This document shows positions 1-46,147 of a DNA stretch of 64,000 nucleotides, one piece after another (within the stretch, counting starts at the first letter, position 1; every line of letters begins with the position of its first letter). The stretch lies in NCBI GenBank assembly GCA_903864265.1, contig CAIPFN010000080.1:18150-82149 (forward strand), given 5' to 3'. Below the pieces are notes generated by a model, which saw nothing but the letters and a program-made list of their open reading frames with translations, was not told where the DNA came from and ran no database searches. The stretch comes from an uncultured Bacteroidales bacterium (GTDB lineage Bacteria > Bacteroidota > Bacteroidia > Bacteroidales > UBA4417). Position numbers and translations under genes: made by a program.

Positions 1-450
1 ACCAGGCTGGAGGCCGCGCTTCATAAAGTGAAAGAATACAAACAAACCGATGCCGCCAATGTGGCAGCTATAGGATACTGCTTCGGCGGTTCGGTGGTAC
101 TTAACTCCGCCAAGCTGGGTGCCGACCTCAAGGCCGTGGTAAGTTTTCACGGGGGACTCAAGGGTGTACCCGCCGATAAAAATCTGCTGAAAGCACAAAT
201 ACTGGTTTGCCACGGTGCCGCCGATAAATTTGTTCCTCAGCAGGATGTGGATGCATTTAAGCATGCCATGGACTCTATAGGTGCCGGCTACACTTTCAAA
301 GCTTACGCCGACGCTACCCACGCCTTTACCAATCCCGACGCTACACGTATAGGCAAGCAATTCAGCATGCCTATCGAATACAATGCCGCTGCCGATAAAG
401 CTTCCTGGAGCGATATGCAGAAATTCCTGGCCGGTATTTTTAAGAAATAG
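1..450 (+). CDS. dienelactone hydrolase family protein (5' end outside window)
   Basis: Frame 1 is open from nt 1 to the TAG at 448-450. The product has the Cys-type nucleophile elbow GYCFGG and a C-terminal His region (DATHAF), typical of dienelactone hydrolase / alpha-beta hydrolases. Confidence 0.8.
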   Translation, partial: TRLEAALHKVKEYKQTDAANVAAIGYCFGGSVVLNSAKLGADLKAVVSFHGGLKGVPADKNLLKAQILVCHGAADKFVPQQDVDAFKHAMDSIGAGYTFKAYADATHAFTNPDATRIGKQFSMPIEYNAAADKASWSDMQKFLAGIFKK

Positions 451-551
451 TTAACGAACTTTCCTGTAAGTCAAAACGGAAACGGGATGCAGAAGCTCAT
501 GCTCCTGAACAAAACCACTTTCCGCCCAATAGTAGCGACCTGATTATCGTC

Positions 552-621
552 AAGGTGTCTGTACACCCTTGGATGCAGACATATCCGAAGGATTGGCTGC
601 AGGCAAGGGGTGTCTGACACC
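552..621. repeat. REP-like pair of short palindromes (GGTGTCTGTACACC ... GGTGTCTGACACC)
   Basis: 554-567 has a GGTGT/ACACC stem with a 4-nt loop. 609-621 is a GGTGTC-T-GACACC palindrome. The same two cores in the same order build the tandem array at 62229-63168. Confidence 0.8.
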
Positions 622-627
622 GGACGA

Positions 628-683
628 TGGAAAATGTCGGATGTGGGATGTCGGATGTGGGATGTCGGATGTGGGATGTGGAA
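628..683 (+). repeat. heptanucleotide tandem array (GGATGTS)n, about 8 units
   Basis: Direct reading gives TGTCGGA TGTGGGA alternating with an exact period of 7 and no indels. Confidence 0.95.
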
Positions 684-688
684 TCTAC

Positions 689-900
689 CCTCTTCTCCTT
701 GTCCCCCTTTCTCCTTGTCCCCTTGTCTCAAATCAATCCAATCAATCTCTTCAATCTCTTCAATCCTATCTCACACTACCCTATCTTCCAATCCATCACT
801 ATCCTCTTCTCCTTGTCCCCTTGTCTCAAATCAATCCCATCAATCTCCTCAATCTCTTCAATCCCATCTCACACTACCCTAACCTCCAATCCATCACTAT
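689..900 (+). repeat. G-poor CT/CA-rich tract made of two tandem units (689-802 and 803-900)
   Basis: Unit 2 repeats unit 1 (cctcttctccttgtcccc...ccaatccatcactat) minus a 16-nt internal duplication. It shares a 24-nt identical string (831-854) with the reverse complement of 45094-45117. Confidence 0.9.
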
Positions 901-932
901 TCACTATTCACTATTCACTTTTCACTATTCAC
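895..932 (+). repeat. heptanucleotide tandem array (CACTATT)n, 5 units
   Basis: Exact period of 7. On the minus strand it reads TGA ATAGTGA..., so the Omp28-like gene stop codon (931-929) is part of the array. Confidence 0.95.
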
Positions 933-1843
933 TGTCTTACAGCAGTTTCCGCTGCCTGCAATACTTCCTTGGTATCAATATCATAAACAAAGGCTACCAC
1001 ATGGCAGTTTTTAGGAACCATGGCATTGGGATTAAAACCGGTAAAATGAACCTGGAAAGTATTGATAACAGGAGCTGAAGAGGTATTGTCTTTCGACAGA
1101 ACCGGCGTGCCCCAGGTGCCATTCACTGCGCCGCGCATCACATGCATATGCACATAATCGAGTATATAGGGCGTGGTGCCTACCGTAGCATCGCCATTGT
1201 ACTGCGCCTGAACAATGCTGTCCTCGGTAAGCACTACCGAGAGATTTAATCCGCGGCCGGTAAGGGATTCGGGGAAACTTGTTTTTACATGCACGCACAA
1301 CTTATCATCGGCAGCACTGTATTCGGTAATCAGCTGTAAATCCATCAGAGGGGCTTCGGTCAACGCGCTCTTAACGCCATCGGCCCAGGCCGAGGGTTTG
1401 GCTACCTGCTTGTTTTCGGGATATCCCTTGCGGCACACCATGCCATTGGGATTACCGAGATTACCTACTTTAAAGAAGTCGTCCCAGGCTGTGCCTTGCG
1501 CGGTACGGAAATCGTAATTCCATACCGGGTCGCCGGCATTCACATTGGCAAACCAGCCTGCATGAACGGCTATCACTACCAATGAGTCTTTGTACTGTTC
1601 TTTCAGGTCGCGGGCAATAAGCCCGGCCCTGGGGCAATTAGGGCAGGTATGCCCGGTATAGTCTTCGAGCAGTACATGTTTAAAATGGGCCGTCACAGCC
1701 GGAAATTCCGGAACGGGGCAGGCCGCGGTATCCACCGGCGCATTGCGGATTACATAGGGGGCATCCACTTTATCGCAGGAAACAAGCAGAAACAAAGCCG
1801 CTGCTGCCAGAAGTAAGGAATTCAGATATTTTGAGTTTGTCAT
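929..1843 (-). CDS. Omp28-related outer-membrane lipoprotein, thioredoxin-like with CPNC motif
   Basis: Lipoprotein signal (LLLAAAALFLLVSC|DK). The segment LLEDYTGHTCPNCPRAG resembles the EEFTG-x-x-C-x-x-CP region of the Omp28-related family. Confidence 0.7.
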   Translation of the reverse strand: MTNSKYLNSLLLAAAALFLLVSCDKVDAPYVIRNAPVDTAACPVPEFPAVTAHFKHVLLEDYTGHTCPNCPRAGLIARDLKEQYKDSLVVIAVHAGWFANVNAGDPVWNYDFRTAQGTAWDDFFKVGNLGNPNGMVCRKGYPENKQVAKPSAWADGVKSALTEAPLMDLQLITEYSAADDKLCVHVKTSFPESLTGRGLNLSVVLTEDSIVQAQYNGDATVGTTPYILDYVHMHVMRGAVNGTWGTPVLSKDNTSSAPVINTFQVHFTGFNPNAMVPKNCHVVAFVYDIDTKEVLQAAETAVRQ

Positions 1844-1855
1844 GGAGTATTCTAT

Positions 1856-3535
1856 TTAAAAACTTGTGGTGATACTAACCGAGAAACCGTTCGAAGCCGG
1901 AACAACCCGGCAAACTCCGCCTACGCATACCACACCTGCACGCTGCTTGCCGTACGAAAGCTGTACGCGGTTTGCGTTGTTGTTATAGGCAACGGCAACA
2001 AGAGGGTAATGAAAACGGCGACCGCTGTCGTCGTTGCCATAATTCCACTGGTCGGCAAAGCTGACAAACCAGGTAGGCGCCACCGTGTATTCGAGCAGGC
2101 CCATCATCCAGTTTCCTTCATCCTGTTTGGAAAGCAAAGCCTGGGTTTCGAGGCGTAAGGCTTTGGAAGGGGTGATTTTATAGGTCATGTCGGCAATAAA
2201 AATATGGGCATGTATCATCGAAAGGCCCTGGGCATCGAGGTCGTTGGTAATAGCGTAGATGTTGTAATCCTCGTGCATATACGTGACCTGCATTTTGAAG
2301 CTTTTATTGAACTTATGCCCTATCTCTACATTCAGGTCGCGGAAATATTTGGTATCCCCAATTTTGAAAAACGGGGAGGTATAACCCAGCGTTCCCTTGA
2401 TGGTATCGCCCACGAAGTCCTTCACAATGGAGTTGATAGCCGAACAGGTAACGGCAATGTCGGTTCCGTATTTACCGCCCAGCCAGGTATTTTTCTTTAT
2501 TTTATAATTGAGCTGCCCGCTTATTCCCATTTCGCTGTTGGGTTGGGTTGCGTATGGATACACAGCAGCCAGGGTATAGGTTTGCTGTTTGGTAATGGCG
2601 GGCAGGTAGTTGATATCAAGTACTTTTTCTTCACCGGTACGTTTCGACTTGAACATCATATTGTCGAGGCGCTTGGCTTGTATGAGTATGCCCAGGCCTT
2701 TCTGGTTGTATGAAACATTCAGCAGCAGGGCTTCGCCTTTTTTATAGATGTAGTTGTTCTGTTCGTTCGGATCGTTCATTTTCTGAACGTATTCGGCTCC
2801 CAGGCCAAAATTGCCGTAGCTAAGGTTAAACCTACCGGCCCCGGAGGCTACATTTAAAGGCAGTACCAGCTCTTCCTGTTTTGCGTTGTATACCAGTTCG
2901 TTTGCTTCGTATTTGCTCACGAAACTTCCCCCCAGTTGCAGGCGCAACTTGCTGTTTTCGAGGGAAGGTATTAAGTCGTTGAGGTTTACATCGGCATCGC
3001 CACCGCGTACTATGCCCGGGCCATAGTCCCAGAAATAGCGCTGTACGCCGTAAATGCCTTTCAACTCAATACCTTTCACCGGGGTGAATTTCACCCTGAT
3101 GCCATTGAGGGCATTATCGTAACCCAGGTTATGTTCCTCGTAAGTGCGGAATATCATGCCGCTGCCAAACTGATCGTAAATATGCCCGGCCGTAACCTGG
3201 AACTGCCCGGTTTTATAGTCCACAAACCAGTAGGGAACTCCTGTGCCTTTATACCGCGGATCGTAGCCGTTTACGGGATTGAGGTAGGTTTCGTAACGCA
3301 GTCCCGCATTGAAATTACCGGAGGTATACGTTATGTTGGTCCAGCTGTTCATCAGCATTTTCTCGCCCACGGGGAAGGCCCTGATAGCCGAATCGACCAT
3401 ATAGTATTGCGCGTCGAGTTGAAAATTTCCGTTTACCTGGCTTCCAAGGGGACTGCCCTGTGCAAAAAGCAAGGCCGGACTCAGGCAAAACAGCGCAGCC
3501 ACGAAAGTTGCGAAAGAAAGTATTTTTGTTTTCAA
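1856..3535 (-). CDS. outer-membrane beta-barrel protein of unknown function (possibly DUF6029-like)
   Basis: The track ORF runs to 3721, but only the in-frame TTG at 3535 gives a signal peptide (MKTKILSFATFVAALFCLSPALLFAQ). The protein has alternating beta-strand character and ends in ...SITTSF (C-terminal Phe), typical of OM barrels. The family name is from memory and is not verified. Confidence 0.65.
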   Translation of the reverse strand: MKTKILSFATFVAALFCLSPALLFAQGSPLGSQVNGNFQLDAQYYMVDSAIRAFPVGEKMLMNSWTNITYTSGNFNAGLRYETYLNPVNGYDPRYKGTGVPYWFVDYKTGQFQVTAGHIYDQFGSGMIFRTYEEHNLGYDNALNGIRVKFTPVKGIELKGIYGVQRYFWDYGPGIVRGGDADVNLNDLIPSLENSKLRLQLGGSFVSKYEANELVYNAKQEELVLPLNVASGAGRFNLSYGNFGLGAEYVQKMNDPNEQNNYIYKKGEALLLNVSYNQKGLGILIQAKRLDNMMFKSKRTGEEKVLDINYLPAITKQQTYTLAAVYPYATQPNSEMGISGQLNYKIKKNTWLGGKYGTDIAVTCSAINSIVKDFVGDTIKGTLGYTSPFFKIGDTKYFRDLNVEIGHKFNKSFKMQVTYMHEDYNIYAITNDLDAQGLSMIHAHIFIADMTYKITPSKALRLETQALLSKQDEGNWMMGLLEYTVAPTWFVSFADQWNYGNDDSGRRFHYPLVAVAYNNNANRVQLSYGKQRAGVVCVGGVCRVVPASNGFSVSITTSF

Positions 3536-3793
3536 GTTACAGAATTTTGATTTGTGACAGGCCGAAAGCTTCGGCAAATCTACATATTTTCTTTTATAAA
3601 AAAACCTCCCGACAAATCGTAATCCGCTGATTACATTTTTTATCAGGAGGTTAAGCCGGTCTGCGGTCAAATCAGCAGGATAAACTGCTTTCTGCGCCGG
3701 GACCTGAGCGTTTACAGCCATTTAGACCGTATAAACAGATAAAAAATCCGCAGCTGAAAAGGCTGATTAAAGCGCTGAATAGTTCAGGTAGTT

Positions 3794-4324
3794 TTAATGT
3801 GTAGCTGCGGCTTCTGCATTCACTTTGCGCACCTCGTTGATCAGGTCAAGCTCGGCGCCTTCGCTGAAACTGGTATGCTGCCAGACGATTTCGCCCTTTC
3901 CGTTCACGATAAAGGTATGGGGAACGGCATTTACATTCATGGCGCGCTTGAAGTCGGCATTCTGGTCGAGCAGTATGTCGTAATTCCAGCCCTTGCCGTT
4001 TACCAGGGTTTTAACCTGTGCCGTGGAGCGGGAGTCGTCGATGGAAACGGCATACACCTTTACGCCGGTTTCTTTCTGCCAGTCGTCGTACACGTCGGCA
4101 ATGGCGGTGAGTTCCTTCACGCAGGGTTTGCACCAGGTGGCCCAGAAACTGATAATAAAGGGTTTGCCGTCGTTAAAGAGCTTGTCGGTATTCACTTTTG
4201 AGCCTTTCATGTCGGTGACCGTCACATTGGGCAGTTTAAAAAGTACTTTGGCCGTTGCCGGTTCCTGGGCCAGCAGGCTTGTTCCGGATACGATGAGCAA
4301 TGCAACAAGAAGGAGGGTTTTCAT
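3794..4324 (-). CDS. TlpA/ResA-like thiol:disulfide oxidoreductase (thioredoxin fold)
   Basis: Signal peptide plus the FWATWCKPCVKE active-site CxxC motif. Confidence 0.85.
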   Translation of the reverse strand: MKTLLLVALLIVSGTSLLAQEPATAKVLFKLPNVTVTDMKGSKVNTDKLFNDGKPFIISFWATWCKPCVKELTAIADVYDDWQKETGVKVYAVSIDDSRSTAQVKTLVNGKGWNYDILLDQNADFKRAMNVNAVPHTFIVNGKGEIVWQHTSFSEGAELDLINEVRKVNAEAAATH

Positions 4325-4353
4325 ATTTGAAGCGTAGGGTTAAGGTTTCTGAA

Positions 4354-5340
4354 TTATTTCTGGGGGCAATAAACTTCGAGAATTTTACTTTCCATAAGAG
4401 GAACAATACGGATGTTTTCCATAATGGCAGGGATAAGCATCACTTCACCGGCTTTCAGGGATTCCTGTCCGCCTTCGTATTCTACAGTGCATTTGCCTTC
4501 GGCGCATTGCAGTATCACGAACGAATCGAGGCCGCTGTAGTCTTTGATTACAGGAACATCGAAATGGATCAGGCTGGTATTGAAATAGGTGCTTTCGACT
4601 ACCGGAACGGTTTTGTTGATTTCGTGCGGGTACTCCGACTTATACACATCCTGTTTAGCGAAATCGAGAGCAGCCAGGGCCAGGTCGGTATGCAGTTCCC
4701 GGGAGACGCCATGGGCATCCACGCGGTCGAAATCGTAGATGCGGTAGGTAAGGTCGCTGCTTTGCTGAATTTCGAAGATCAGCAGGCCGGGGCCAATAGC
4801 ATGCACCCTGCCGGCGGGAATATAATAAACATCGCCTTTCTGAACCTTTTCATAGTTCATGATTTCTTTGATGCTTCCGTTACGGAGATGTGAAAGGTAC
4901 AAAGGAGCCGACATGGCCTGGTTAAAGCCGCTGATCAGTTCGGCACCGGGTTCGGCAGCAGCCACATACCACATTTCGGTTTTACCCGAATCGTCGTGCC
5001 TGCTTTGGGCGAGCGTATCGTCGGGATGTACCTGTATGGAAAGCCAGTCGCTGGCATTCAGTATCTTGATCAGCAAAGGGAATTGGGTGCCGTATTTTTC
5101 GAAAACAGCTTCACCCACCAGGTCGCCCATATAAATATCGATCAGCTCATCCAGCTGGTTTTCGGCCAGGAAGCCGTTATTCACCACGCTGATTTCATCA
5201 CCGTATCCTGACAGCACCCAGGCTTCGCCGCAATTGGCAAGCGGGGCGTAGTCCATTCCGAAAACCGTATGTATTTTATCGCCTCCCCAGATTTTTTCTT
5301 TGAAAACGGGGTTGAATTTCAGGGGATATAATTCGTTCAT
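4354..5340 (-). CDS. manA: type I mannose-6-phosphate isomerase
   Basis: N-terminus LYPLKFNPVFKEKIWGG and the metal-site context SIQVHPDD are typical of class I PMI in Bacteroidota. Confidence 0.85.
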   Translation of the reverse strand: MNELYPLKFNPVFKEKIWGGDKIHTVFGMDYAPLANCGEAWVLSGYGDEISVVNNGFLAENQLDELIDIYMGDLVGEAVFEKYGTQFPLLIKILNASDWLSIQVHPDDTLAQSRHDDSGKTEMWYVAAAEPGAELISGFNQAMSAPLYLSHLRNGSIKEIMNYEKVQKGDVYYIPAGRVHAIGPGLLIFEIQQSSDLTYRIYDFDRVDAHGVSRELHTDLALAALDFAKQDVYKSEYPHEINKTVPVVESTYFNTSLIHFDVPVIKDYSGLDSFVILQCAEGKCTVEYEGGQESLKAGEVMLIPAIMENIRIVPLMESKILEVYCPQK

Positions 5341-5686
5341 GGATTTTTATTTTTAGATGTAAGGGAAGGGAGAAGTGCGAAGGGGGAAAATATGGATTGA
5401 CTTTTATGTTCAGTTTCAGGTTAAACTCTCCGTCAGGCCTGCAGCTAAAAAGGCTGATTGCTGTATTTGGTATTCAGGCTGTTCTTTATTTGAATTCCGG
5501 AGTCGAATCATTCACAACACACTACTCACCACTCTCTCTGTCAGTCATTTAAAATAAACCACAGTTGCATTCCAACTCCCAAAAGTACAATATTATCCAT
5601 TTCCGGCAACGGTGGAGGAGCAATCCTTCGAAGGAAAAATTTCGAAGCCCGGAAAGGAGTACTTTTGCAGGTTCAAAATAAACCCT

Positions 5687-6544
5687 ATGAGCGGGAACCC
5701 CGAGAAACCTTTACGCAAACCCGGCTGGCTGAAAATCAGCCTTCCGAAGGGCGATAACTTCCTTCAGGTGAAAGGCATACTCGAAGTAAAGGGTTTGCAT
5801 ACTATCTGCTCCAGCGGCAAATGCCCCAATATGGGCGAATGCTGGAATGCCGGCACGGCTACCTTTATGATCCTTGGCGACATCTGCACCCGGAGCTGTA
5901 AATTCTGCGCCACCCGTACCGGGAAACCTTTACCTGTGGATGTGGACGAGCCGGGGAAAATTGCCGATTCGGTCAGGCTTCTGAACCTGAAACATGTGGT
6001 TGTCACTTCCGTTGACCGGGATGATTTACCCGATGGAGGAGCAGCCATCTGGGCAGAAACAGTCAGGAAAGTGAAAGAAATGAACCCCGGTATTACCATT
6101 GAAACCCTTGTTCCCGACTTTTGCGGAAATGCGGCTCAGCTTCAGCAGCTTATTGATGCTGCCCCGGATATTATTTCGCATAACCTCGAAACGGTCCGCC
6201 GCCTGACACCCCGGGTACGCAGCGCCGCTCAGTATGATCGCAGCCTGGAAGTGCTGCGGCAAATTGCTGCTTCGGGTCTGAAAGCCAAATCGGGCATCAT
6301 GCTTGGCCTGGGCGAAACCGAAGCCGAAGTGCTGGAAACTATGGATGATTTGCGGAAGGTGAACTGTGGTATTCTTACCATAGGGCAGTACCTGCAACCT
6401 TCGAAAGCACACCTTGAAGTGGCTGAATATATACACCCTGAGCAGTTTGAAAAATACAGGCTAGCCGGGTTGGAGAAAGGATTCAGGCATGTGGAAAGCA
6501 AACCTCTGGTAAGGAGTAGTTATCATGCAGAGAAACATGTTTGA
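5687..6544 (+). CDS. lipA: lipoyl synthase
   Basis: Radical-SAM CxxxCxxC (CTRSCKFC) plus the auxiliary-cluster Cys region (CPNMGEC). The ATG at 5687 gives a normal length of about 285 aa. The track start at 5612 is a GTG extension. Confidence 0.95.
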   Translation: MSGNPEKPLRKPGWLKISLPKGDNFLQVKGILEVKGLHTICSSGKCPNMGECWNAGTATFMILGDICTRSCKFCATRTGKPLPVDVDEPGKIADSVRLLNLKHVVVTSVDRDDLPDGGAAIWAETVRKVKEMNPGITIETLVPDFCGNAAQLQQLIDAAPDIISHNLETVRRLTPRVRSAAQYDRSLEVLRQIAASGLKAKSGIMLGLGETEAEVLETMDDLRKVNCGILTIGQYLQPSKAHLEVAEYIHPEQFEKYRLAGLEKGFRHVESKPLVRSSYHAEKHV

Positions 6545-6590
6545 TGTGGGATGTGGAATGTCGGATGTCGGATGTATGATTTCGGATGTT
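6542..6590 (+). repeat. heptanucleotide array (GGATGTS)n, 7 units
   Basis: TGATGTG GGATGTG GAATGTC GGATGTC GGATGTA TGATTTC GGATGTT. The first three bases are the lipA TGA stop codon. Confidence 0.95.
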
Positions 6591-6707
6591 TCATGAAATT
6601 AGATACTCCCGATAAATATGATGATCAATATTATAGCTTTTCTGCTTGTTCAACCAGACGATTCCTTGGTACGTTCTCATTCTTCCTGCCGCTAACCAAA
6701 ATAATAA

Positions 6708-7430
6708 ATGAAAGTAATTTTCAAGGATCTGGGTTTAATGCCCTACCAGCAAGCCTGGGATTACCAGGAGAAACTTCTCGGTGAGATCATTCACCAGAAA
6801 CTGGAATTTCAGAAACGTCCTTCCATTCAACAGGAATTCACTGATAACTACCTGCTGTTTGTTGAGCATCCGCATGTTTTCACCCTGGGAAAAAGCGGCT
6901 CGGAGGCGAACCTGCTGGCGAACCTGGTTCAGCTACAGGCTAAAAATGCCGAATTTATCACCACTAACCGGGGAGGTGATATCACCTATCACGGTCCGGG
7001 ACAAATTGTGGGTTACCCCATACTGAACCTTGATTATTTTGCGAAAGGTATACGCGACTATATTGATAAACTGGAAGAAGCCATTATCCTTTGCCTGAAT
7101 CATTATGGAATTGAAGGTTCCCGGTTCCCGGGCGCCACGGGGGTATGGCTCGACACCGCGGTGGCCGCGAAAACGCGGAAAATCTGTGCCATGGGGGTTC
7201 GGGTAAGCCGCGGAGTAAGCATGCATGGCTTTGCTTTTAATGTTAACACCGATTTGTCGTACTTTAGCCTCATCAATCCCTGTGGCTTCAACGATAAAAA
7301 GGTAACTTCGCTGCAGGCTGAAACAGGCCGTGAAATGGATACAGAAGAAGTTAAAGCGATATTGAAAGAAAAAATCTCGGAGGTTTTCGGAATGGAATTA
7401 GACTTATCCACCCCAAAAACACACCATTAA
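6708..7430 (+). CDS. lipB: lipoyl(octanoyl) transferase
   Basis: Motifs HPHVFTLGKSG, RGGDITYHGPGQ and KICAMGVRV (catalytic Cys/Lys region) are present. Confidence 0.95.
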   Translation: MKVIFKDLGLMPYQQAWDYQEKLLGEIIHQKLEFQKRPSIQQEFTDNYLLFVEHPHVFTLGKSGSEANLLANLVQLQAKNAEFITTNRGGDITYHGPGQIVGYPILNLDYFAKGIRDYIDKLEEAIILCLNHYGIEGSRFPGATGVWLDTAVAAKTRKICAMGVRVSRGVSMHGFAFNVNTDLSYFSLINPCGFNDKKVTSLQAETGREMDTEEVKAILKEKISEVFGMELDLSTPKTHH

Positions 7431-7442
7431 TCTTTATTCCTA

Positions 7443-7515
7443 CATCACACATCCGAAATCCGAAATCCGAAATCCGACATCCGACATCCGACATCCGACA
7501 TCCCACATCCGACAT
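7443..7515 (-). repeat. heptanucleotide array (GGATGTS / GGATTTC)n in inverted orientation, 10 units
   Basis: The plus strand reads CATCACA CATCCGA (AATCCGA)x3 (CATCCGA)x3 CATCCCA CATCCGA with an exact period of 7. It starts 13 nt after the lipB stop and ends 18 nt before the LOG start. Confidence 0.95.
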
Positions 7516-7532
7516 TAATAAAATCACACAAC

Positions 7533-8138
7533 ATGACTCCCATCAAATCCATCTGCGTCTTCTGTGGCTCCAGTGCCGGAAGCCGTGAAGAATACACCGT
7601 AAAAGCCCGCGACCTGGGACTGCTGTTGGTTGAAAAAGGAATTACGCTGGTGTACGGCGGCAGCAATGTCGGCATCATGCACGTGATTGCCGATACCATG
7701 ATGCAGGCCGGCGGGAAAGTGATCGGCGTGATGCCGCATAATCTCATCGAGCGCGAAGTGGCACATAAAGCCATAACCGAATTCCATGTGGTGGAAACCA
7801 TGGCCGAACGCAAGGCGGTTATGGATACCCTTTCGGATGCTTTTATCGCCATGCCCGGGGGAATCGGCACCCTCGACGAACTTTTCGAGGTGATGAGCTG
7901 GAACCAGCTTGAACTGATTACCAAACCGGTAGCCTTATTCAATGTGCTGGGTTATTATGATCAGCTGATCTCCTTTCTTGACCACTCAGTTGATCAGCGT
8001 TTTGTAAAGCCCGAACACCGGATTAACCTGATAGCCGAAAGCGATGAGAATATTCTTCTCGAAAAGATAATGAACTATAAACCGGTGAAAGTGGATGGAG
8101 GAAAATGGATTAAGGAATTGAGGGATAATTCATTCTGA
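7533..8138 (+). CDS. LOG family protein (TIGR00730-type, cytokinin riboside 5'-monophosphate phosphoribohydrolase-like)
   Basis: ICVFCGSS, GGSNVGIMH and PGGIGTLDE motifs are present. Confidence 0.9.
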   Translation: MTPIKSICVFCGSSAGSREEYTVKARDLGLLLVEKGITLVYGGSNVGIMHVIADTMMQAGGKVIGVMPHNLIEREVAHKAITEFHVVETMAERKAVMDTLSDAFIAMPGGIGTLDELFEVMSWNQLELITKPVALFNVLGYYDQLISFLDHSVDQRFVKPEHRINLIAESDENILLEKIMNYKPVKVDGGKWIKELRDNSF

Positions 8139-8282
8139 TGGCTGATGGGCCAGAGGTTTTAATCAGGCATTTCCGGCACTTTTTCATTTCGAAAAAACCT
8201 TGCCTACCCTGTAATTTCGTAATTTTAAGTCTATCAGATTTCAGCTGAATTCTGTTTCCCCCAACTAAAATAATTTGAAATT

Positions 8283-8611
8283 ATGGAAGCCGTTAAATTA
8301 TATGATAACAAGAAAATACGTTCGGTCTGGGATGCTGAACAGGAGAAATGGTTTTTCTCGATCGTTGATATAATTGAAGCACTAACCGATAGCAATAACC
8401 CACAGGTATATTGGCGGGTTCTTAAAAAACGGCTTCTTGCCGAAGGAAACGAAACCGTTACAAATTGTAACGCTTTGAAAATGCAAGCACCTGATGGGAA
8501 TATGCGTTGAACCTACACAGACCGCCCCCGAAAATACTGGAGCGATTTAAAATCAAAATTAAAAAAGAAGACAGCGAGTTGTCCGAAAAAATCGGACAAC
8601 TGAAAATGTAA
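8283..8611 (+). pseudogene. decayed Bro-N-like (phage antirepressor N-terminal type) gene remnant
   Basis: The 75-aa ORF (KKIRSVWDAEQEKWFFSIVDIIEAL...) ends at an in-frame TGA (8508-8510). The same frame continues with TYTDRPRKYWSDLKSKLKK. A shift at the A6 run (8561-8566) is then needed to read EDSELSEKIGQLKM up to the TAA at 8609-8611. The expected C-terminal part is absent. Confidence 0.6.
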
Positions 8612-8720
8612 ACAGAAGCACAAACAAAAAAACATCGTCGGTCCGCTGAATGCAAAAACATTGAAAGAAAGTAAAAAGGTAAAAAGACTCAAATAATCTT
8701 TGGAATTAAATTAAAAATAC

Positions 8721-9287
8721 ATGCTCATCATAGGAATTACCGGAACATTAGGCGCAGGAAAAGGAACCATTGTAGATTACCTGGTACAGGAAAAAGGCTT
8801 CGTGCACTTTTCGGTTCGCGGATTCATAACCGAAGAAATTGTACGGCAGGGATTGCCTGTGAACCGCGACAGCATGGTTACCGTTGCCAATAAGCTGCGT
8901 GCCGGGAATTCGCCCTCCTACATTATCGACCAGCTATACGAACAGGCACTGATTACAGGGAAAAACTGCATTATCGAGAGCATACGAACTCCCGGCGAGG
9001 TACAATCGCTGGTCGAAAAAGGCAATTTCGTGCTTTTTGCCGTGGATGCCGACCCTATGCTGCGTTACGATCGTATTGTGATGCGCAATTCCGAAACCGA
9101 CCGGATATCATTTGCCACTTTCATCGAAAACGAGGAGCGCGAAATGCAATCGGACGATCCGAACAAACAGAATATCGGGAAATGCATTGAGAAAGCTGAT
9201 TGTATTTTCTATAATAACTCTTCAGTAAAGGATTTACATAAGCGTGTTGAAGCAGAACTGGCGGAGTTAAACATCGGCCTTGGTTAA
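8721..9287 (+). CDS. P-loop nucleotide/nucleoside kinase family protein (dephospho-CoA kinase / dNMP kinase-like)
   Basis: N-terminal Walker A (IGITGTLGAGKGT) and a small ~188-aa kinase-like architecture. The substrate is not determinable from sequence. Confidence 0.6.
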   Translation: MLIIGITGTLGAGKGTIVDYLVQEKGFVHFSVRGFITEEIVRQGLPVNRDSMVTVANKLRAGNSPSYIIDQLYEQALITGKNCIIESIRTPGEVQSLVEKGNFVLFAVDADPMLRYDRIVMRNSETDRISFATFIENEEREMQSDDPNKQNIGKCIEKADCIFYNNSSVKDLHKRVEAELAELNIGLG

Positions 9288-9501
9288 AACTATATACTGG
9301 TTTTCCGACCCGGCCTAAAATATATGTCCGTTTTGTATTAGCACACAGCGATTCAATTCTATTACGGGAAGATCACCTGTAACCAGGCTATAGCAACAGC
9401 GTCCTGTGCATTTACGCCCCAGCTTTCTATAAACAAAAGAGGCTTACGCTGGCTCAAAATGCCACAACTTCAAACTATTTAGAATAGTACAAAGATCAAT
9501 T

Positions 9502-9801
9502 TCAGGCTTTTATACGTCTCGTCAGATCTCTGGCTCCGTGATGTACCATTAAAATTTGCAATTCTTCTTTACTGACAATTTGATATATGATCCGATAATT
9601 CCCTTCAACAATTTCCCGGATTTTAGGGTCATTTATTTCTTCAACAATTTTACCAATTTCGATTTGCTTCTTCAAAGCTTCAGTTCGGGACCGGATACGC
9701 TCCACTTGAAATTTGGCATATCGTTTCGAATCAAAAGAGATATAATCATAAATCTCTTTCAAATCATTCCTGGCAGCCGCTAACCAGACTATTCGAACCA
9801 T
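9502..9801 (-). CDS. type II toxin, RelE/ParE family
   Basis: 99 aa. The pattern IVWLAAARNDLKEIYDYI...YRIIYQI...ILMVHHGARD is typical of ParE/RelE plasmid-stabilisation toxins. It overlaps the upstream small ORF by 13 nt. Confidence 0.8.
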   Translation of the reverse strand: MVRIVWLAAARNDLKEIYDYISFDSKRYAKFQVERIRSRTEALKKQIEIGKIVEEINDPKIREIVEGNYRIIYQIVSKEELQILMVHHGARDLTRRIKA

Positions 9802-9971
9802 TCTCCCATTTCTGCTTTAAGTTCTTCTTCTGTAATAGTTTCACCAATTTTTGATTGCTCAATTCTATTCTCCAATTTCTCAACAAAAATCAACCTATCA
9901 ATGAGTTCATCGATCGACATTTCATCCGGAAATTGCTCAATGTGCTTTTTTAGCTTTTCTTTGGTTATCAT
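9789..9971 (-). CDS. putative antitoxin (small acidic addiction-module component)
   Basis: A 60-aa acidic ORF lies immediately upstream of the toxin gene and overlaps it, which is classical antitoxin-toxin order. Confidence 0.65.
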   Translation of the reverse strand: MITKEKLKKHIEQFPDEMSIDELIDRLIFVEKLENRIEQSKIGETITEEELKAEMGEWFE

Positions 9972-10116
9972 TGTTCAATAATATAAAGCTAAGGTACAGG
10001 TTTTAAACTGGTTTTTCTTAAAAATCAGGATTCACTAATTTGTTATTTCGGATCCATCTTGTCAATCAGCAGAATATCTGCAAAAAGAAATTGAGGTTTC
10101 ATAAGTAACCTCTTAA

Positions 10117-10158
10117 CATCCCACATCTGACATCCCACATCTGACATCCCACATCCTA
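10117..10158 (-). repeat. heptanucleotide array (GGATGTG/GGATGTC-type), 6 units
   Basis: The plus strand reads CATCCCA CATCTGA x3. The last unit, CATCCTA, contains the TAG stop (10158-10156) of the dCMP deaminase gene. Confidence 0.95.
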
Positions 10159-10704
10159 TTTCCCTGTTTCGGCGGGATCTATATTATCTACCAGTTGTTT
10201 GGCATATTGAAGCACTTCCTCGTTTACATACAGCAGTTCGATTCCGGCCTGGATAAACATTTCTTCCGATTCGGAACCTGAATGGTATTTGAACTCGCAC
10301 ACCACGCGTTCGATGCCACAGTTGATGATGAGCATGGCACAGGTACGGCAGGGCGTCATCCGGCAGTAAAGGGTGCTTCCCTGCAAAGGGATGCCTAACC
10401 TGGCAGCCTGGCAAATAGCATTTTGCTCGGCATGAACCGTGCGTACGCAGTGGTTGGTTACCTTTCCGTCCTCATGGGTCATCTGTTTAAAGAGGTGGCC
10501 TACCTCGTCGCAATGCGGTAATCCTACCGGTGACCCTACATAGCCTGTAACCAGTATCTGTTTATTCCTTGCAATTACGCATCCACTCCGGCCACGATCG
10601 CAGGTGGCACGTTTGGCGATGGTACGGGCCACTTCCATAAAGTATTCATCCCAGGTAGGGCGTATATAGGGCACTTCAGTATCTTCTGCCATAGTCATGA
10701 TCAT
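10156..10704 (-). CDS. deoxycytidylate (dCMP) deaminase, ComEB type
   Basis: Zinc motifs HAEQNAI and PCRTCAML (HxE ... PCxxC) of the cytidine/deoxycytidylate deaminase fold. Confidence 0.9.
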   Translation of the reverse strand: MIMTMAEDTEVPYIRPTWDEYFMEVARTIAKRATCDRGRSGCVIARNKQILVTGYVGSPVGLPHCDEVGHLFKQMTHEDGKVTNHCVRTVHAEQNAICQAARLGIPLQGSTLYCRMTPCRTCAMLIINCGIERVVCEFKYHSGSESEEMFIQAGIELLYVNEEVLQYAKQLVDNIDPAETGK

Positions 10705-24369: not shown

Positions 24370-24398
24370 GTTCCGGGTTCCGGAGTTCCGGGTTCCGG
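24370..24398 (-). repeat. heptanucleotide array (CCGGAAC)n, 4 units, in the sufB-sufC spacer
   Basis: The plus strand reads GTTCCGG GTTCCGG A GTTCCGG GTTCCGG. It is the reverse complement of the CCGGAAC module at 44682-44709. Confidence 0.9.
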
Positions 24399-24440
24399 CA
24401 ATTGCAGTCATGCCCTTTAAGGCTAATTTCTTATTTAGTA

Positions 24441-24520
24441 TCCAACATCCGACATCCAACATCCAACATCGCAGATCAAACTTCGCAGATCCGACATCCG
24501 ACATCGCAGATCCGACATCA
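24441..24520 (-). repeat. heptanucleotide array (GGATGTY / GATCTGC variants), 11 units, directly after the sufB stop
   Basis: Minus strand: TAA TGA TGTCGGA TCTGCGA TGTCGGA TGTCGGA TCTGCGA AGTTTGA TCTGCGA TGTTGGA TGTTGGA TGTCGGA TGTTGGA. The period is exactly 7 throughout. Confidence 0.95.
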
Positions 24521-25969
24521 TTAACCCACGCTTCCCTCGAGGCTGATGGCTAAAAGCTTTTGTGCTTCAACGGCAAATTCCATTGGTAAATGCATCAGTA
24601 CTTCCTTGGCATATCCATTCACGATCAGGCCTATGGCGCTTTCGGAACTGATACCGCGTTGCTTGCAATAGAAAAGCTGGTCGTCCGAAATTTTGGAGGT
24701 GGTAGCTTCGTGTTCAATGATGGAGGTATGGTTTTCGGCTTTGATATACGGATAGGTGTGAGCCCCGCATTTATCGCCCAGCAGCAGCGAATCGCACTGG
24801 GAGAAATTACGGGCATTTTCAGCCCTCTTGATCACCTTAACAAGCCCCCGGTAGCTGTTGTTGCTTTGCCCGGCCGAAATGCCTTTTGAAATAATGGTGC
24901 TTTTGGTATTCTTGCCCAGGTGTATCATTTTCGAACCGGTGTCGGCCTGCTGGAAATTGTTGGTTACCGCCACCGAATAAAATTCGCCCACCGAATTATC
25001 ACCCATCAGCACCACGCTGGGATATTTCCAGGTGATTGCCGATCCGGTTTCCACCTGGGTCCAGGATATTTTGGAGTGACTTCCCTTACAGATACCTCGT
25101 TTTGTAACAAAGTTATAAATACCGCCTTCGCCTTTTTTATTGCCGGGGTACCAGTTTTGAACGGTGCTGTATTTAACTTCGGCATCCTTCATGGCTACAA
25201 TCTCCACGATGGCGGCATGCAGCTGGTTTTCGTCACGCATAGGAGCCGTACATCCTTCCATATAGCTCACATAAGCACCTTCGTCGGCTACAATCAGGGT
25301 ACGTTCGAACTGACCGGTATTTGCCGCATTGATGCGGAAATAGGTCGATAATTCAACCGGGCAGCGCACTCCTTTGGGGATATAACAGAACGAGCCATCG
25401 CTGAAAACAGCGGAATTGAGTGCGGCAAAGAAGTTATCGTTGCTTGGCACCACGCTGCCCATATATTGTTTAACCAGTTCCGGGTGATTCTGTACCGCAT
25501 CGCTGAAGGAACAAAAAATCACTCCATATTTTGAAAGCACATCCGTAAAAGTAGTTTTGACCGATACGCTGTCGATTACTGCATCAACGGCTACCCCGCT
25601 CAGTTTTTTCTGCTCCTCGAGCGATATGCCCAGCTTATTGAAGGTCTCAATCAGTTCAGGATCCACTTCATCAAGGCTGCTGAGTTCTTTTTTACGTTTA
25701 GGAGCGGCATAATATATAATATCCTGGTACCTGATAGGCGGGTGATGAAGATGGGCCCAGGAAGGCTCGGTAAGCGTAAGCCAGTGGCGATAAGCGCTGA
25801 GCCTGAACTCAAGCATCCAGCCCGGCTCATTCTTTTTGGCCGATATAAACCTCACCGTATCCTCACTCAGCCCCACCAGGGCCATATCCATCTCGATGTC
25901 GGTATAAAAGCCATACTTGTAATCGCTGTTGGTTACTTCTTCCAGTATATTATTCTGATCTTTTTCCAT
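24521..25969 (-). CDS. sufB: Fe-S cluster assembly scaffold SufB
   Basis: 482 aa with highly conserved SufB blocks ([41 protein letters not shown]). Confidence 0.97.
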
Positions 25970-27456: not shown

Positions 27457-27547
27457 GTAAAATGAACCCGGCCTTTCCGGACCAGCCTTAACGACCAGCA
27501 TCTAACTCTGAATCGATTATATCCCTTTTTAACTCCTGATTCAAATA

Positions 27548-29362
27548 TTGGCCAAACATTCCTTACATATCGAAAATATAGTCCGCGACCTGCCCGACAG
27601 TCCCGGAGTGTACCAGTATTACGATAAGGAAGGGACAATCCTGTATGTAGGCAAGGCCAAAAACCTGAAAAAGAGGGTTTCGTCCTATTTCAGGCGCGAC
27701 GAGTCACTGGTAGGCAAAGTGAGAGTGCTGGTTCAGAAAATTGCCGACATCCGGATACTGGTAGTGGATACCGAACTGGACGCCCTGCTTCTGGAAAACA
27801 ACCTGATTAAAAAATACCAGCCTCGCTACAACGTGATGCTGAAGGACGATAAAACCTATCCCTGGATCTGCATTAAAAAAGAAGCTTTTCCCCGTATTTT
27901 CCCCACCCGCAATCGCATCAGCGACGGCTCCGACTACTTCGGCCCTTATGCCTCGGGCAAAATGATGCATATGCTGCTCGATCTGATCCGGCAGCTGTAC
28001 CAAATCCGCACCTGCAGCCTTAACCTGAGTGCCGCCAATATACGTACCGGCAAGTATAAGATCTGTCTCGAATATCATATTAACAATTGCCTGGGCCCCT
28101 GCGAGGGTCTGCAGACCGAAGATGATTACGGGCAATCGCTGCAGGAAATCAGGAATATTCTACGTGGAAATATCTCATCCGTAAGGCAGCACCTTACAGC
28201 GATGATGAAAGCGTATGCCGATACCTATGAGTTTGAAAAAGCACATATTGTAAAGGAGAAAATTGAATTGCTCGACCGCTACCAGAGTAAATCGTCGATT
28301 GTGAGTCCCTCGATTCACAATATCGATATTTTCTCGTACGTTGACGAACCCACGGCTGCCTATATCAATTTTATGAAAGTGATAAGCGGGAGTATCATAC
28401 AGGCTCATACCGTTGAAATCAGGAAAAAGCTGGATGAAACGCCCGAAGAATTGCTGTTGCTTGCCATTATTGAGTTACGCGAACGTTTCGATTCGGATGC
28501 GCCCGAAATCATAGTCCCCTTTAAGCCGGATGTAGAGTTCCCCGGCGTTTCCTATACCATGCCCGTGCGGGGCGAGAAGAAAAAGCTGCTCGAACTCTCC
28601 GAACGCAACGCCAGGTATTACCAGCTGGAAAAGCATAAACAACTGGAACATGTTGACCCCGAGCGCCACACCACCCGCATCATGGAACAGATGCAGAAAG
28701 ATCTCCGGCTGAAGGAGCACCCGCTGAGGATCGATTGCTTCGATAATTCCAACATACAGGGCTCCTACCCCGTTGCAGCCATGGTGGTTTTCGTCAACGG
28801 CAGGCCCGATAAAAAAGAATACCGCCATTTCAACATCAAAACCGTGGAAGGGCCGAATGACTTTGCCTCTATGGAAGAGGTGATATACCGCCGATACAAA
28901 CGCGTGATCGACGAAAACCAGCCTTTGCCCCAGCTTATTGTGGTTGACGGTGGCAAGGGGCAACTCAGTTCGGCCATGGAAAGTATTGACAAGCTGGGAT
29001 TGCACGGCAAAGTGGCTGTGATAGGCATAGCCAAAAAACTGGAAGAAATATATTATCCCGGCGATTCACTGCCACTCTATATCGATAAAAAATCGGAGAC
29101 CCTGCGCATCATACAGCAGTTGCGCGACGAAGCCCACCGTTTCGGTATTACCCATCATCGCAAGCGGCGCGAAAAAGGAACTATCAAAACCGAGCTGACT
29201 GAAATTGCCGGCGTGGGCGAATCCACCTCTACCCTGCTGCTGCGTAAATTCAGGTCGGTAAAAGGCATAAAGACTGCCACCCTGGCGGAAATACAGGAAG
29301 CAGCCGGGCTGGCAAAAGGGAAAATAGTATTTGATTATTTTCATCCCGGGAAAACTGAATAA
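27548..29362 (+). CDS. uvrC: excinuclease ABC subunit C
   Basis: GIY-YIG domain (PGVYQYYDKEGTILYVGKAKNLKKRVSSYF), UVR domain, Endo-V-like domain and C-terminal HhH. It has a TTG start at 27548 and no upstream ATG in frame. Confidence 0.95.
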   Translation: MAKHSLHIENIVRDLPDSPGVYQYYDKEGTILYVGKAKNLKKRVSSYFRRDESLVGKVRVLVQKIADIRILVVDTELDALLLENNLIKKYQPRYNVMLKDDKTYPWICIKKEAFPRIFPTRNRISDGSDYFGPYASGKMMHMLLDLIRQLYQIRTCSLNLSAANIRTGKYKICLEYHINNCLGPCEGLQTEDDYGQSLQEIRNILRGNISSVRQHLTAMMKAYADTYEFEKAHIVKEKIELLDRYQSKSSIVSPSIHNIDIFSYVDEPTAAYINFMKVISGSIIQAHTVEIRKKLDETPEELLLLAIIELRERFDSDAPEIIVPFKPDVEFPGVSYTMPVRGEKKKLLELSERNARYYQLEKHKQLEHVDPERHTTRIMEQMQKDLRLKEHPLRIDCFDNSNIQGSYPVAAMVVFVNGRPDKKEYRHFNIKTVEGPNDFASMEEVIYRRYKRVIDENQPLPQLIVVDGGKGQLSSAMESIDKLGLHGKVAVIGIAKKLEEIYYPGDSLPLYIDKKSETLRIIQQLRDEAHRFGITHHRKRREKGTIKTELTEIAGVGESTSTLLLRKFRSVKGIKTATLAEIQEAAGLAKGKIVFDYFHPGKTE

Positions 29363-44559: not shown

Positions 44560-44611
44560 ATTGAATTCAGGAGGTAACTATGTGAAACGGGAAATGCTTG
44601 CCTTTTGATAA

Positions 44612-44709
44612 TGTGGGATGTGGGATGTTTGATGTGGGATGTGGGAACCCGGCACCTGGCACTTGGAACCTGGCACTTGGTACCCGGAACCCGGAACCCG
44701 GAACCCGGA
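44612..44709 (+). repeat. 14 contiguous heptamers: (TGTGGGA)x5 fused in phase to (ACCYGGN)x9 ending in (ACCCGGA)x4
   Basis: Direct count from 44612 shows the period-7 register is unbroken across the switch of motif family at 44646/44647. Confidence 0.95.
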
Positions 44710-44723
44710 ACATCTTCTTCTTT

Positions 44724-45062
44724 CTAGCCTTTGAGCAGGTTGTCGATATTTTCGATATAATCGAGGGAATCGTCAATAAAAAAATCGAGCTCGGGGATGG
44801 ATCGCACCTGGTTGTGGATACGGTTGCCCAGTTTAAGCCGGATCTCTTTCCGGTGTTCTTTAATCAGGGCCAGTAACTCCGGCTTAGGGGTTTTCCCGAA
44901 AAGGCTGATATAAACTTTAGCCAGGAAAAGGTCGGGGGAGATGTGTACCTTGGTAACCGTAATCATATTGCCCGTGAATACATCGCGGCCCATGGCCTGG
45001 AATATTTCGCCCATATCCTTCTGGAGCAGTCGTTCTATTTTTTGCTGACGTGTTGTTTGCAT
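44724..45062 (-). CDS. rbfA: ribosome-binding factor A
   Basis: MQTTRQQKIERLLQKDMGEIF...ITVTKVHISPDLFLAKVYISLF is a canonical RbfA N-terminus. The track ORF start at 45137 runs into the repeat tract and is rejected. Confidence 0.9.
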   Translation of the reverse strand: MQTTRQQKIERLLQKDMGEIFQAMGRDVFTGNMITVTKVHISPDLFLAKVYISLFGKTPKPELLALIKEHRKEIRLKLGNRIHNQVRSIPELDFFIDDSLDYIENIDNLLKG

Positions 45063-45090
45063 GGCGCAAAGGTAAGGATTTATTGGAATA

Positions 45091-45200
45091 GGTGATTGAG
45101 GAGATTGATGGGATTGAGGAGATTGAGGGGGCGACAAGGGGACAAGGGGAGATTGATGGGATTGATGCGATTGAGGAGATTGATGGAGACAAGGTGAGGA
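45091..45200 (-). repeat. C-poor (plus strand) GATTGAKGR / GGGACAAGG low-complexity tract, homologous to 689-900 in reverse orientation
   Basis: The reverse complement contains ccccttgtccccttgtc and tcaatcccatcaatctcctcaatc. The latter is a 24-nt identity with 831-854. Confidence 0.9.
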
Positions 45201-45272
45201 TTGATGGATTTGAAGGGAGATTGCAATGTATTATACGGCATGACGGTTATCGATTTCATCGTCTGATTATTC

Positions 45273-45321
45273 CACATCCCACATCATACATCCCACATCA
45301 TACATCCGACATCCTAGATCT
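45273..45321 (-). repeat. heptanucleotide array (GGATGTG/GGATGTA-type), 6-7 units, right after the GT2 stop codon
   Basis: Minus strand: TAG GAGATC TAGGATG TCGGATG TATGATG TGGGATG TATGATG TGGGATG TGG. Confidence 0.95.
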
Positions 45322-45322
45322 C

Positions 45323-46147
45323 CTAAAGTCCTGACTCAATATCCCGGCAATATTCCCTCATGGTTTCCAGGCTCCATTTATCCTCGTTCGAGATAATGTT
45401 ATCCTTGTCGGCAAAGGGAGCACGGGTTGATTTGGAGGTTAAGCGGATGTAATGATGTATGAACACTCCCAGTGCCATATGAACAGGCTTGATGTCATTA
45501 TGTTCGATATTTCTTTTCTTCGAGCGTATGTACAAATCAAAGTCAGCGCCTTGGATGCGCTCATCCCAGAGGCCTATTTTGGCCAGGGCCTCTCGCCGCA
45601 TCATCACGGTATTCCCCACGAAACCTTCCTTCACGGCAAGCCCGAATTTTTCGAAGCGTTTGTTGGCGAAGCGTTCCCAGTTCCCGTACATCAGCCGGTG
45701 CATGAGCTTTAGGTTAAAGGTGCTGAAGCCAAATACGGCGAGAGGATTTTTTACCTTCAGCCATCGGCGCTTTATAGCTTTGGAGCTCACGGCATCTTCC
45801 AGCATTTCGATGCCCACGGGGGTGATTACATCCAGGCCAGCGGCATCGGCGGCATCGAGCATGCGTTTGTCCCAGTCGGGTGAAACGATAATATCGTTAT
45901 TGATAAAAACGAAAGTATCATATTTTGCTTTGGCGATTCCCTGGTTCTGGCATACAGGGTAGGAATAGTTTAGCTCATTTTCAATCACCACAGCGCCCAC
46001 CGACTTGAAAAATTCCCGGCTTCCATCCGTGCTCTTATTGTCAATAATGATAAGTTCGAAAGGATGAAACGTATATTTCCGGAGGGATTGCCAGAATATC
46101 CGGTTCATCGGCAATCCGTTATGCACTGCGGTTATGATGCTGATCAT
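45323..46147 (-). CDS. glycosyltransferase family 2
   Basis: ISIITAVHNG ... ELIIIDNKSTDGS ... FINNDI (DxD-like) is typical of GT-A fold GT2 enzymes. Confidence 0.85.
   Translation of the reverse strand: MISIITAVHNGLPMNRIFWQSLRKYTFHPFELIIIDNKSTDGSREFFKSVGAVVIENELNYSYPVCQNQGIAKAKYDTFVFINNDIIVSPDWDKRMLDAADAAGLDVITPVGIEMLEDAVSSKAIKRRWLKVKNPLAVFGFSTFNLKLMHRLMYGNWERFANKRFEKFGLAVKEGFVGNTVMMRREALAKIGLWDERIQGADFDLYIRSKKRNIEHNDIKPVHMALGVFIHHYIRLTSKSTRAPFADKDNIISNEDKWSLETMREYCRDIESGL

Follow-up and report, generated by a model that had tools for sequence, protein, structure and literature searches.

What accounts for two arrays of a seven-nucleotide repeat that face each other across a single housekeeping gene? 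The question is raised by a 64,000-nucleotide (nt) stretch of DNA from an uncultured Bacteroidales bacterium (GenBank assembly GCA_903864265.1, contig CAIPFN010000080.1, positions 18,150 to 82,149 of the forward strand; hereafter the window), in which the octanoyltransferase gene lipB lies between opposed arrays of the heptamer GGATGTS. A preliminary description of the window had related both arrays to lipB, through a long-range RNA duplex that loops out the gene or through inversion of the enclosed DNA. The analysis reported here favours another answer. On balance, the arrays appear to be independent members of a fast-turnover intergenic GGATGTS family, neither a device for lipB nor the ends of an invertible segment, and the duplex that they would form in the transcript is probably processed by RNase III.

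The arrays occupy the two spacers of a row of + strand genes whose order is conserved in relatives and whose identities, as first proposed, were confirmed by Pfam: lipA, encoding a radical SAM lipoyl synthase (5687-6544; Radical_SAM), the enclosed lipB (6708-7430; LplA-B_cat), and a LOG-family gene of the Lysine_decarbox/SLOG type (7533-8138; Lysine_decarbox). By unit-by-unit reading, the left array spans 6542-6590 with its G-rich strand on the + strand, exactly as previously given, and the right array spans 7441-7517 rather than 7443-7515, with its G-rich strand on the - strand and SACATCC on the + strand. The limits returned by Tandem Repeats Finder were 6543-6589 (period 7, 6.7 copies) and 7438-7515 (period 7, 11.1 copies). 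The left array comprises seven units (TGATGTG, GGATGTG, GAATGTC, GGATGTC, GGATGTA, TGATTTC and GGATGTT), and the lipA stop codon TGA (6542-6544) forms the first three bases of its unit TGATGTG. The preliminary description had missed this overlap, as well as five further arrays in the window. The right array comprises 11 units, three of them GGATTTC variants; it starts 10 nt 3' of the lipB stop (7428-7430) and ends 15 nt 5' of the LOG ATG (7533). The lipB-LOG spacer is 102 nt long, as had been stated, and 77 nt of it, not 70, are array. The inverted-repeat arms, separated by 847-877 nt, are complementary at 81% over 59 nt or at 88% over 51 nt, and the 18-mer ATGTCGGATGTCGGATGT at 6558, noted before as a perfect inverted match, is the longest such match between the arrays.

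The two arrays belong to a dispersed family. The pattern GGATGTSGGATGTS with at most two mismatches has 42 matches in the 64-kb window, compared with 1.15 ± 0.98 in shuffles, and these matches group into seven arrays, every one of which lies between open reading frames (ORFs). Besides the two at lipB, the family includes A1 (634-687, + strand; pattern matches and Tandem Repeats Finder), located between convergent genes and followed by other simple-repeat blocks at 688-933; A4 (10115-10156, - strand), whose last base is the G of the TAG stop of a dCMP deaminase gene (10156-10704, - strand); A5 (24437-24520, - strand), located between sufB and sufC directly 3' of the sufB stop (24521-24523); A6 (44609-44643, + strand), which is C-rich in the sense of the - strand genes and lies downstream of rbfA, 49 nt upstream of a methyltransferase start (44559); and A7 (45273-45314, - strand), 8 nt past the stop of a glycosyltransferase family 2 (GT2) gene (45323-46147, - strand). 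A6 and A7 bracket rbfA (44724-45062, - strand; identified by Pfam), which is thus a second gene enclosed by convergent arrays, with the same G-arm-first topology as at lipB and a predicted pairing energy of -57 kcal/mol. Conserved non-repeat termini of the kind that mark a mobile element were not found at the arrays, which open with a partial ATGTS and close with a partial GGA. Polar growth of the arrays, with perfect units nearest the gene, was considered and rejected, because their 5' and 3' halves are equally degenerate (29 versus 34).

A common positional rule emerges when such arrays are compared across genomes. A scan for four perfect units in 185,579 species genomes yielded at least 115 loci, designated below by L numbers, which span Planctomycetota, Bacteroidota, Gammaproteobacteria, Acidobacteriota, Verrucomicrobiota, Chloroflexota, Actinomycetota and others. 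Positions were recorded for 132 arrays in 116 sequences, that is, the 115 listed loci and the window, to which all counts of array positions and array pairs given here refer; ORFs were called after masking of the arrays, the calling being crude in genomes of high guanine-plus-cytosine (GC) content. The closer gene end was on the 5' side of the G strand for 59 of 88 arrays and on the 3' side for 29 (p = 0.002), with 25 versus 8 at a GC fraction below 0.52, and the median distance to the gene end was 22 nt on the 5' side versus 94 nt on the 3' side. Within 20 nt, 58 gene ends were found on the 5' side versus 23 on the 3' side, among them 36 versus 19 stop codons and 22 versus 4 start codons. The same tendency is seen in arrays without an inverted partner, for which the closer neighbour was on the 5' side in 47 cases and on the 3' side in 24 (25 versus 6 at low GC). 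These distances indicate that the arrays read GGATGTS in sense just after a stop codon, or SACATCC in sense just before a start codon. The after-stop arrays begin with a partial ATGTS, the missing GGA being the stop codon TGA or TAA. According to this rule, the left array belongs to the end of lipA and the right array to the start of LOG, with lipB merely between them; the lipB bracket is most simply seen as neighbouring spacers that hold one array of the after-stop and one of the before-start kind.

The sequence of the unit, by comparison, does not demonstrably stand out. A special status of GGATGTS on the grounds of its presence in more than ten phyla is not supported, because permuted, composition-matched heptamers are equally or more frequent; in viral contigs, three permuted heptamers form 9, 10 and 20 perfect four-unit arrays versus 3 for GGATGTS. 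A higher-order repeat was also observed in a Bacteroidales metagenome-assembled genome (L063:4042-4699), where five GGATGTS arrays lie about 152 nt apart in a tandem repeat that contains the array.

The arrays turn over rapidly among relatives. Relatives with 72-84% identical LipB keep the order PMI, lipA, lipB, LOG and AAA_18 kinase, and none of those sampled carries GGATGTS arrays at lipA-lipB-LOG. Their lipB-LOG gap is 3 nt in L116-L119, L124, L167 and L168 and absent in L170 and L174; in L120-L123 it measures 132-133 nt and contains a hairpin and an ATTAACC-type heptamer array abutting the LOG ATG. The lipA-lipB spacer of relatives holds four CCACNNAG units directly after the lipA stop and four CUNNGUGG units before lipB, and these inverted 8-mer arrays fold into a long-range stem with z of -4 to -7 (L118:9833-10003, L120:4828-5003, L122:7832-8003, L124:9815-10003 and L171:2400-2503). 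The stem shows compensatory change between species, the NN of CCACNNAG pairing with the NN of CUNNGUGG as AG:CU, GG:CC or UA:UA, and it is missing from the window. Around rbfA, L256 and L258 have no arrays, and L255, L259 and L260 have long arrays of GGAAGWC, one base off GGATGTC, directly after the rbfA stop (L255:1071-1252, L259:378-528 and L260:3339-3641). Homologues of rbfA occur on several contigs of about 530-545 nt, and both L259 (528 nt) and L255 (1,252 nt) end inside a GGAAGWC array. The differing arrays of the relatives indicate that these spacers are hot spots of fast array-family replacement, and this turnover, as read from the sequences, suggests a neutral or selfish origin of the arrays. 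The LOG-kinase spacer is a hot spot for insertions (window 8139-8720; L120:6591-7421; L119:1576-1824; L124:11432-11704), where relatives carry a Bro-N gene or an unrelated small ORF and the window a 75-amino-acid ORF without a Pfam match.

The predicted pairing of the lipB arrays in RNA is strong. In silico cofolding of the two arrays, treated as naked RNA, gives a duplex energy of -80 kcal/mol, compared with -29 ± 4 kcal/mol for shuffled arms, and a helix of about 50 base pairs (bp) between them is present in the minimum-energy fold of 6500-7560 as its dominant long-range helix. In purely thermodynamic terms, 47 of the 59 left-arm bases are paired with the right arm at equilibrium. The earlier proposal of an RNA duplex that loops out lipB therefore stands in so far as the arrays are complementary and pair in silico. 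A device specific to lipB is unsupported, because the arrays belong to a dispersed family, occupy the standard position beside the outer genes and are lacking in relatives.

For the two arrays to meet in one RNA, the three genes have to be transcribed together. The sequence TACTTTTG at 5660-5667 on the + strand, a TAnnTTTG element (the Bacteroidetes -7 box) 20 nt before lipA, is the only + strand TAnnTTTG in 5300-8300 and a candidate for the single promoter of lipA-lipB-LOG. No terminator was predicted in the lipA-lipB-LOG spacers, and scans for sigma-70-type promoters, terminators and the full Bacteroidetes promoter pattern gave nothing above background near the arrays. Because of the single TAnnTTTG box, the absence of a predicted terminator and the ancestral 3-nt lipB-LOG junction, we infer that lipA-lipB-LOG is most likely one transcript.

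Inverted pairs like that at lipB were then considered across all loci, as adjacent arrays of opposite orientation within 2 kb. Fifteen pairs are convergent (G arm first on either strand) and one is divergent. Nine convergent pairs are short hairpins with loops of 8-108 nt, and the other six enclose 400-850 nt, two of these being the lipB and rbfA brackets of the window. Avoidance of Rho as the cause of the "G arm first" order was considered and is not supported, because solitary C-sense arrays before start codons are common. Among the matches listed, all four long-range pairs outside the window enclose one small ORF each, and each ORF matches PF05635, the "23S rRNA-intervening sequence protein" family (rRNA, ribosomal RNA), with E values of 1e-16 to 1e-31. 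The four cassettes are from Ardenticatenaceae (L016:1727-2243), Planctomycetota (L058:4806-5369), Thermaceae (L092:1476-1995) and Phycisphaerales (L104:3085-3639), and represent three phyla. Each fills the spacer from the stop of one gene to the end of the next, the far side being a start codon in L016 and L092 and the stop of a convergent gene in L058 and L104. The enclosed genes are the only PF05635 genes in the whole set of listed loci, in which no PF05635 gene was found beside Bacteroidales arrays.

The association also holds in the reverse direction. A tblastn search of plasmids with one enclosed PF05635 protein led to cyanobacterial "four helix bundle protein" genes. Of six, four lie between inverted arrays, a fifth has arrays on a single side and the sixth lacks them. 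Three of the four brackets, as read, consist of heptamers, GGGTGTR in Calothrix and Nostoc punctiforme and AGGTGAC in Anabaena, and the fourth, in Oscillatoria, has long arms. Two control stretches of 50 kb each were decisive. In that from the N. punctiforme plasmid pNPUN01, which has 35 genes, period-7 arrays number five, and all of them flank the two PF05635 genes (L253:24566-25268 and 27541-28116), the second of which has the arms GGAAGTC/GGAGGTC; GGAAGWC, the unit found after rbfA in close relatives, thus also occurs in a PF05635 cassette. In that from pANA02 of Anabaena sp. 90, which has 43 genes, the only four arrays flank a stand-alone PF05635 gene inserted between cas6 and cas4 (L254:38113-38940), and the avd gene of a diversity-generating retroelement (DGR) has no arrays. 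No description of PF05635 genes outside rRNA flanked by inverted heptamer arrays was found in the literature, a weak negative given the limited literature covered, and searches by repeat sequence returned only primer matches.

Taken together, these results are consistent with the following course of events at lipB. The G-rich strand of one family member would start at the lipA stop, and the C-rich strand of another would fill the ancestrally 3-nt lipB-LOG spacer and end before the LOG start. In a single lipA-lipB-LOG transcript the arrays could then anneal into the duplex of about 50 bp predicted in silico, with lipB looped out, and cleavage of this duplex by RNase III would separate the lipA, lipB and LOG segments. 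We hold with moderate confidence, by analogy, that such processing is the likeliest consequence of the arrays, because the ends of 23S rRNA intervening sequences behave in this way and similar inverted arrays enclose PF05635 genes.

Several points weigh against this interpretation. Co-transcription, the duplex in vivo and RNase III cleavage are all steps that we infer, and ribosomes translating lipB would oppose formation of the duplex. Since the window contains no PF05635 gene, this genome is tied to the cassettes indirectly. The seven arrays form two brackets, both convergent, which is somewhat above what independent placement would give, roughly estimated at 0.2 convergent adjacent pairs. 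Rare unit variants are shared by the arms of a bracket (GGATTTC by both lipB arms and GGATGTW-TGATGTG by both rbfA arms), a hint that they are not independent but related or co-evolving. The best match of the lipA array among the seven is likewise the LOG array, a weak signal since A1 matches all arrays about equally.

The same observations are part of the support for a selected long-range stem, a functional 'mRNA intervening sequence' that excises or stabilises the lipB segment and so sets the lipA:lipB:LOG ratios. Such a stem would account for the strength of the predicted duplex, the same topology at rbfA, the 15:1 convergent bias of inverted pairs and the unit variants private to the arms together with the match of the lipA array to the LOG array, and the co-varying CCACNNAG/CUNNGUGG stem in the lipA-lipB spacer of relatives makes it seem that a structured element is maintained there. 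We nevertheless consider a selected stem rather unlikely, as the arrangement occurs in none of the sampled relatives, each arm adjoins the outer gene in the manner of solitary arrays at other loci, three of the window's seven arrays are unpaired, and the similarity of the arms is weak given that of A1 to every array. At rbfA, moreover, the conserved promoter box lies downstream of the upstream arm, so that the pair would meet only in read-through RNA. This box, TACCTTTG (TAnnTTTG) at 45063-45085, stands a few bases 5' of the rbfA ATG and is kept in relatives (L256:2975-3000), which suggests a promoter for a leaderless or very-short-leader rbfA mRNA. A broader possibility, which we advance tentatively and rate no higher than the selected stem, is that inverted G-arm-first arrays are the RNA stems of a widespread selfish, intervening-sequence-like cassette that normally carries a PF05635 gene, is inserted between co-transcribed genes and is cut from the mRNA by RNase III; the arms in the window would then enclose lipB and rbfA as 'intervening sequences' of operon mRNAs, whose processing would set expression. 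If true, it would explain the origin and cross-phylum spread of heptamer repeats of the short tandemly repeated repetitive (STRR) type.

Other explanations place the function of the arrays outside the stem and are less probable still. The arrays could be cis binding sites for a trans-acting factor, such as the pentameric PF05635 four-helix-bundle protein, a CsrA-like GGA binder or the 30S subunit, and thereby form a post-transcriptional regulon. This would fit the tight physical linkage between heptamer arrays and PF05635 genes, seen in at least five phyla, the recurrence of the related units GGAAGTC, GGAGGTC and GGATGTC in unrelated genomes and the strict polarity of the array strand with respect to start and stop codons. 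The 30S subunit is a candidate because GGAUGUG differs at a single position from the Shine-Dalgarno sequence GGAGGUG, and GGAUGU matches the CsrA consensus from systematic evolution of ligands by exponential enrichment (SELEX), RUACARGGAUGU. A regulon of this kind is improbable in our view, since a PF05635 gene is present neither in the window nor, among the matches listed, beside Bacteroidales arrays, every second array is antisense to its neighbouring gene, and permuted heptamers, as noted above for viral contigs, form four-unit arrays at least as often. Somewhat more doubtful is a role at gene ends, where the arrays would affect transcription or replication as non-B DNA or G-quadruplex elements: although the positional rule is shared with quadruplex-forming heptamers and units with S=G create GGGATGT, most units have only GG, a single GGG occurs in the left array, compared with the four or more tracts of at least three G that define quadruplex-forming repeats, and ViennaRNA with G-quadruplexes enabled placed none in the minimum-energy structure of either G strand. 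Inversion of the lipB segment by recombination between the arrays, raised in the preliminary description, is very improbable. Inverted repeats of 51-59 nt do flank an 850-bp segment, but their longest perfect identity is only 18 nt, the enclosed gene is a housekeeping gene in a conserved gene order, and a Pfam scan of neighbours from 28 to 10704, within about 6 kb, detected no recombinase gene. PF05635 genes enclosed elsewhere occur in either orientation, unlike a switch. The collections examined contained no second contig of the source species that could reveal copy-number change or inversion.

Other repeats in the window obey a similar strand preference. Blocks of CCTTGTCC, TCAATCTCY and TCACTAT repeats occur at 688-933 and, in opposite orientation, at 45090-45223, each adjoining a GGATGTS array, and arrays of GGAACCC/GGCACCT and GTTCCGG are present at 44644-44711 and 24370-24398, respectively. 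All of these other short spacer repeats follow a stop codon with their purine- or G-rich strand in sense. The blocks at 600-940 and 45060-45330 were considered as copies of one duplicated element and rejected, since they have only unit types in common (73% column identity). A 101-bp tandem repeat (8.8 copies, 88% identity) was also observed at 62265-63158, and a single related copy (GGTGTCTGTACACC...GGTGTCTGACACC) adjoins array A1 at about 545-625. A ParE-family toxin gene with an overlapping small upstream ORF, a putative antitoxin without a Pfam match, is located at 9502-9971; the pair is present at the corresponding position in L122 and L124 and absent in other relatives. No Rfam family was matched in the window, and no rRNA was found in it.

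The arrays are an addition to the known class of dispersed intergenic heptamer repeats. Such repeats have been known since 1990, when STRR sequences were described, and are still unexplained; the Bacteroidales family obeys the same strand and position rule as those of Xanthomonas and Nostoc. The bracketing of PF05635 genes by inverted heptamer arrays in Chloroflexota, Planctomycetota, Deinococcota and Cyanobacteria provides a testable link and is the part most worth following: if general, one RNase III-based mechanism would join these repeats, the 23S rRNA intervening sequences and the abundant PF05635 family. What is to be expected at lipB is a processed operon transcript rather than a DNA switch.

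Compared with known systems, the GGATGTS arrays resemble palindromes of the repetitive extragenic palindromic (REP) and bacterial interspersed mosaic element (BIME) type, as well as invertons, in being dispersed inverted repeats in intra-operon spacers, and differ from them in that the arms are simple repeats 850 nt apart, with no compact palindrome and no associated transposase or invertase found. The heptamer TAACTGA forms direct repeats in Beggiatoaceae, Cyanobacteria and Bacteroidetes, with a similarly fast replacement of array families in spacers for the Bacteroidetes heptamers (MacGregor 2015, PMC4679880). Those arrays are likewise intergenic and located beside start codons, have a patchy distribution among phyla and are missing from the equivalent spacers in close relatives; they are, however, of another unit, mostly forward just upstream of starts, and have no described inverted-pair architecture. 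The intervening sequence of the Coxiella 23S rRNA encodes a PF05635 protein and has terminal inverted repeats that are cut by RNase III, and strains differ in the number of tandem GACAGAT heptamers that it carries at the RNase III site (Warrier et al. 2016, PMC4990558). As in the 23S intervening sequences with S23p/PF05635 genes of Coxiella and Leptospira, terminal inverted repeats at lipB would pair into a long stem with an ORF in its loop, whereas the stems here lie in mRNA spacers and enclose lipB or rbfA instead of PF05635, and their cleavage by RNase III is presumed by analogy.

The closest resemblance is to the repeats of Rehm et al. 2015 (PMC4692102), who described GGGAATC in Xanthomonas and GGGGAYT in Nostoc, proposed G-quadruplex formation and also cited the cyanobacterial STRR heptamers. 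In those repeats, the G strand is in sense at most 50 bp after a stop or antisense at most 50 bp before a start, the gene on the 5' side is nearer whatever its orientation, and some repeats overlap stop codons; they vary between close relatives, inverted pairs were noted, and their function is unknown (PMC4692102). Common to these repeats, the STRR sequences and the present family are tandem 7-nt units in at least four copies, a dispersed intergenic distribution, the same strand and position rule and variability or absence in relatives. The family described here differs in its Bacteroidales host, in its unit GGATGTS, with mostly GG rather than GGG and no predicted quadruplex, and in its two pairs in adjacent spacers, which enclose whole genes.

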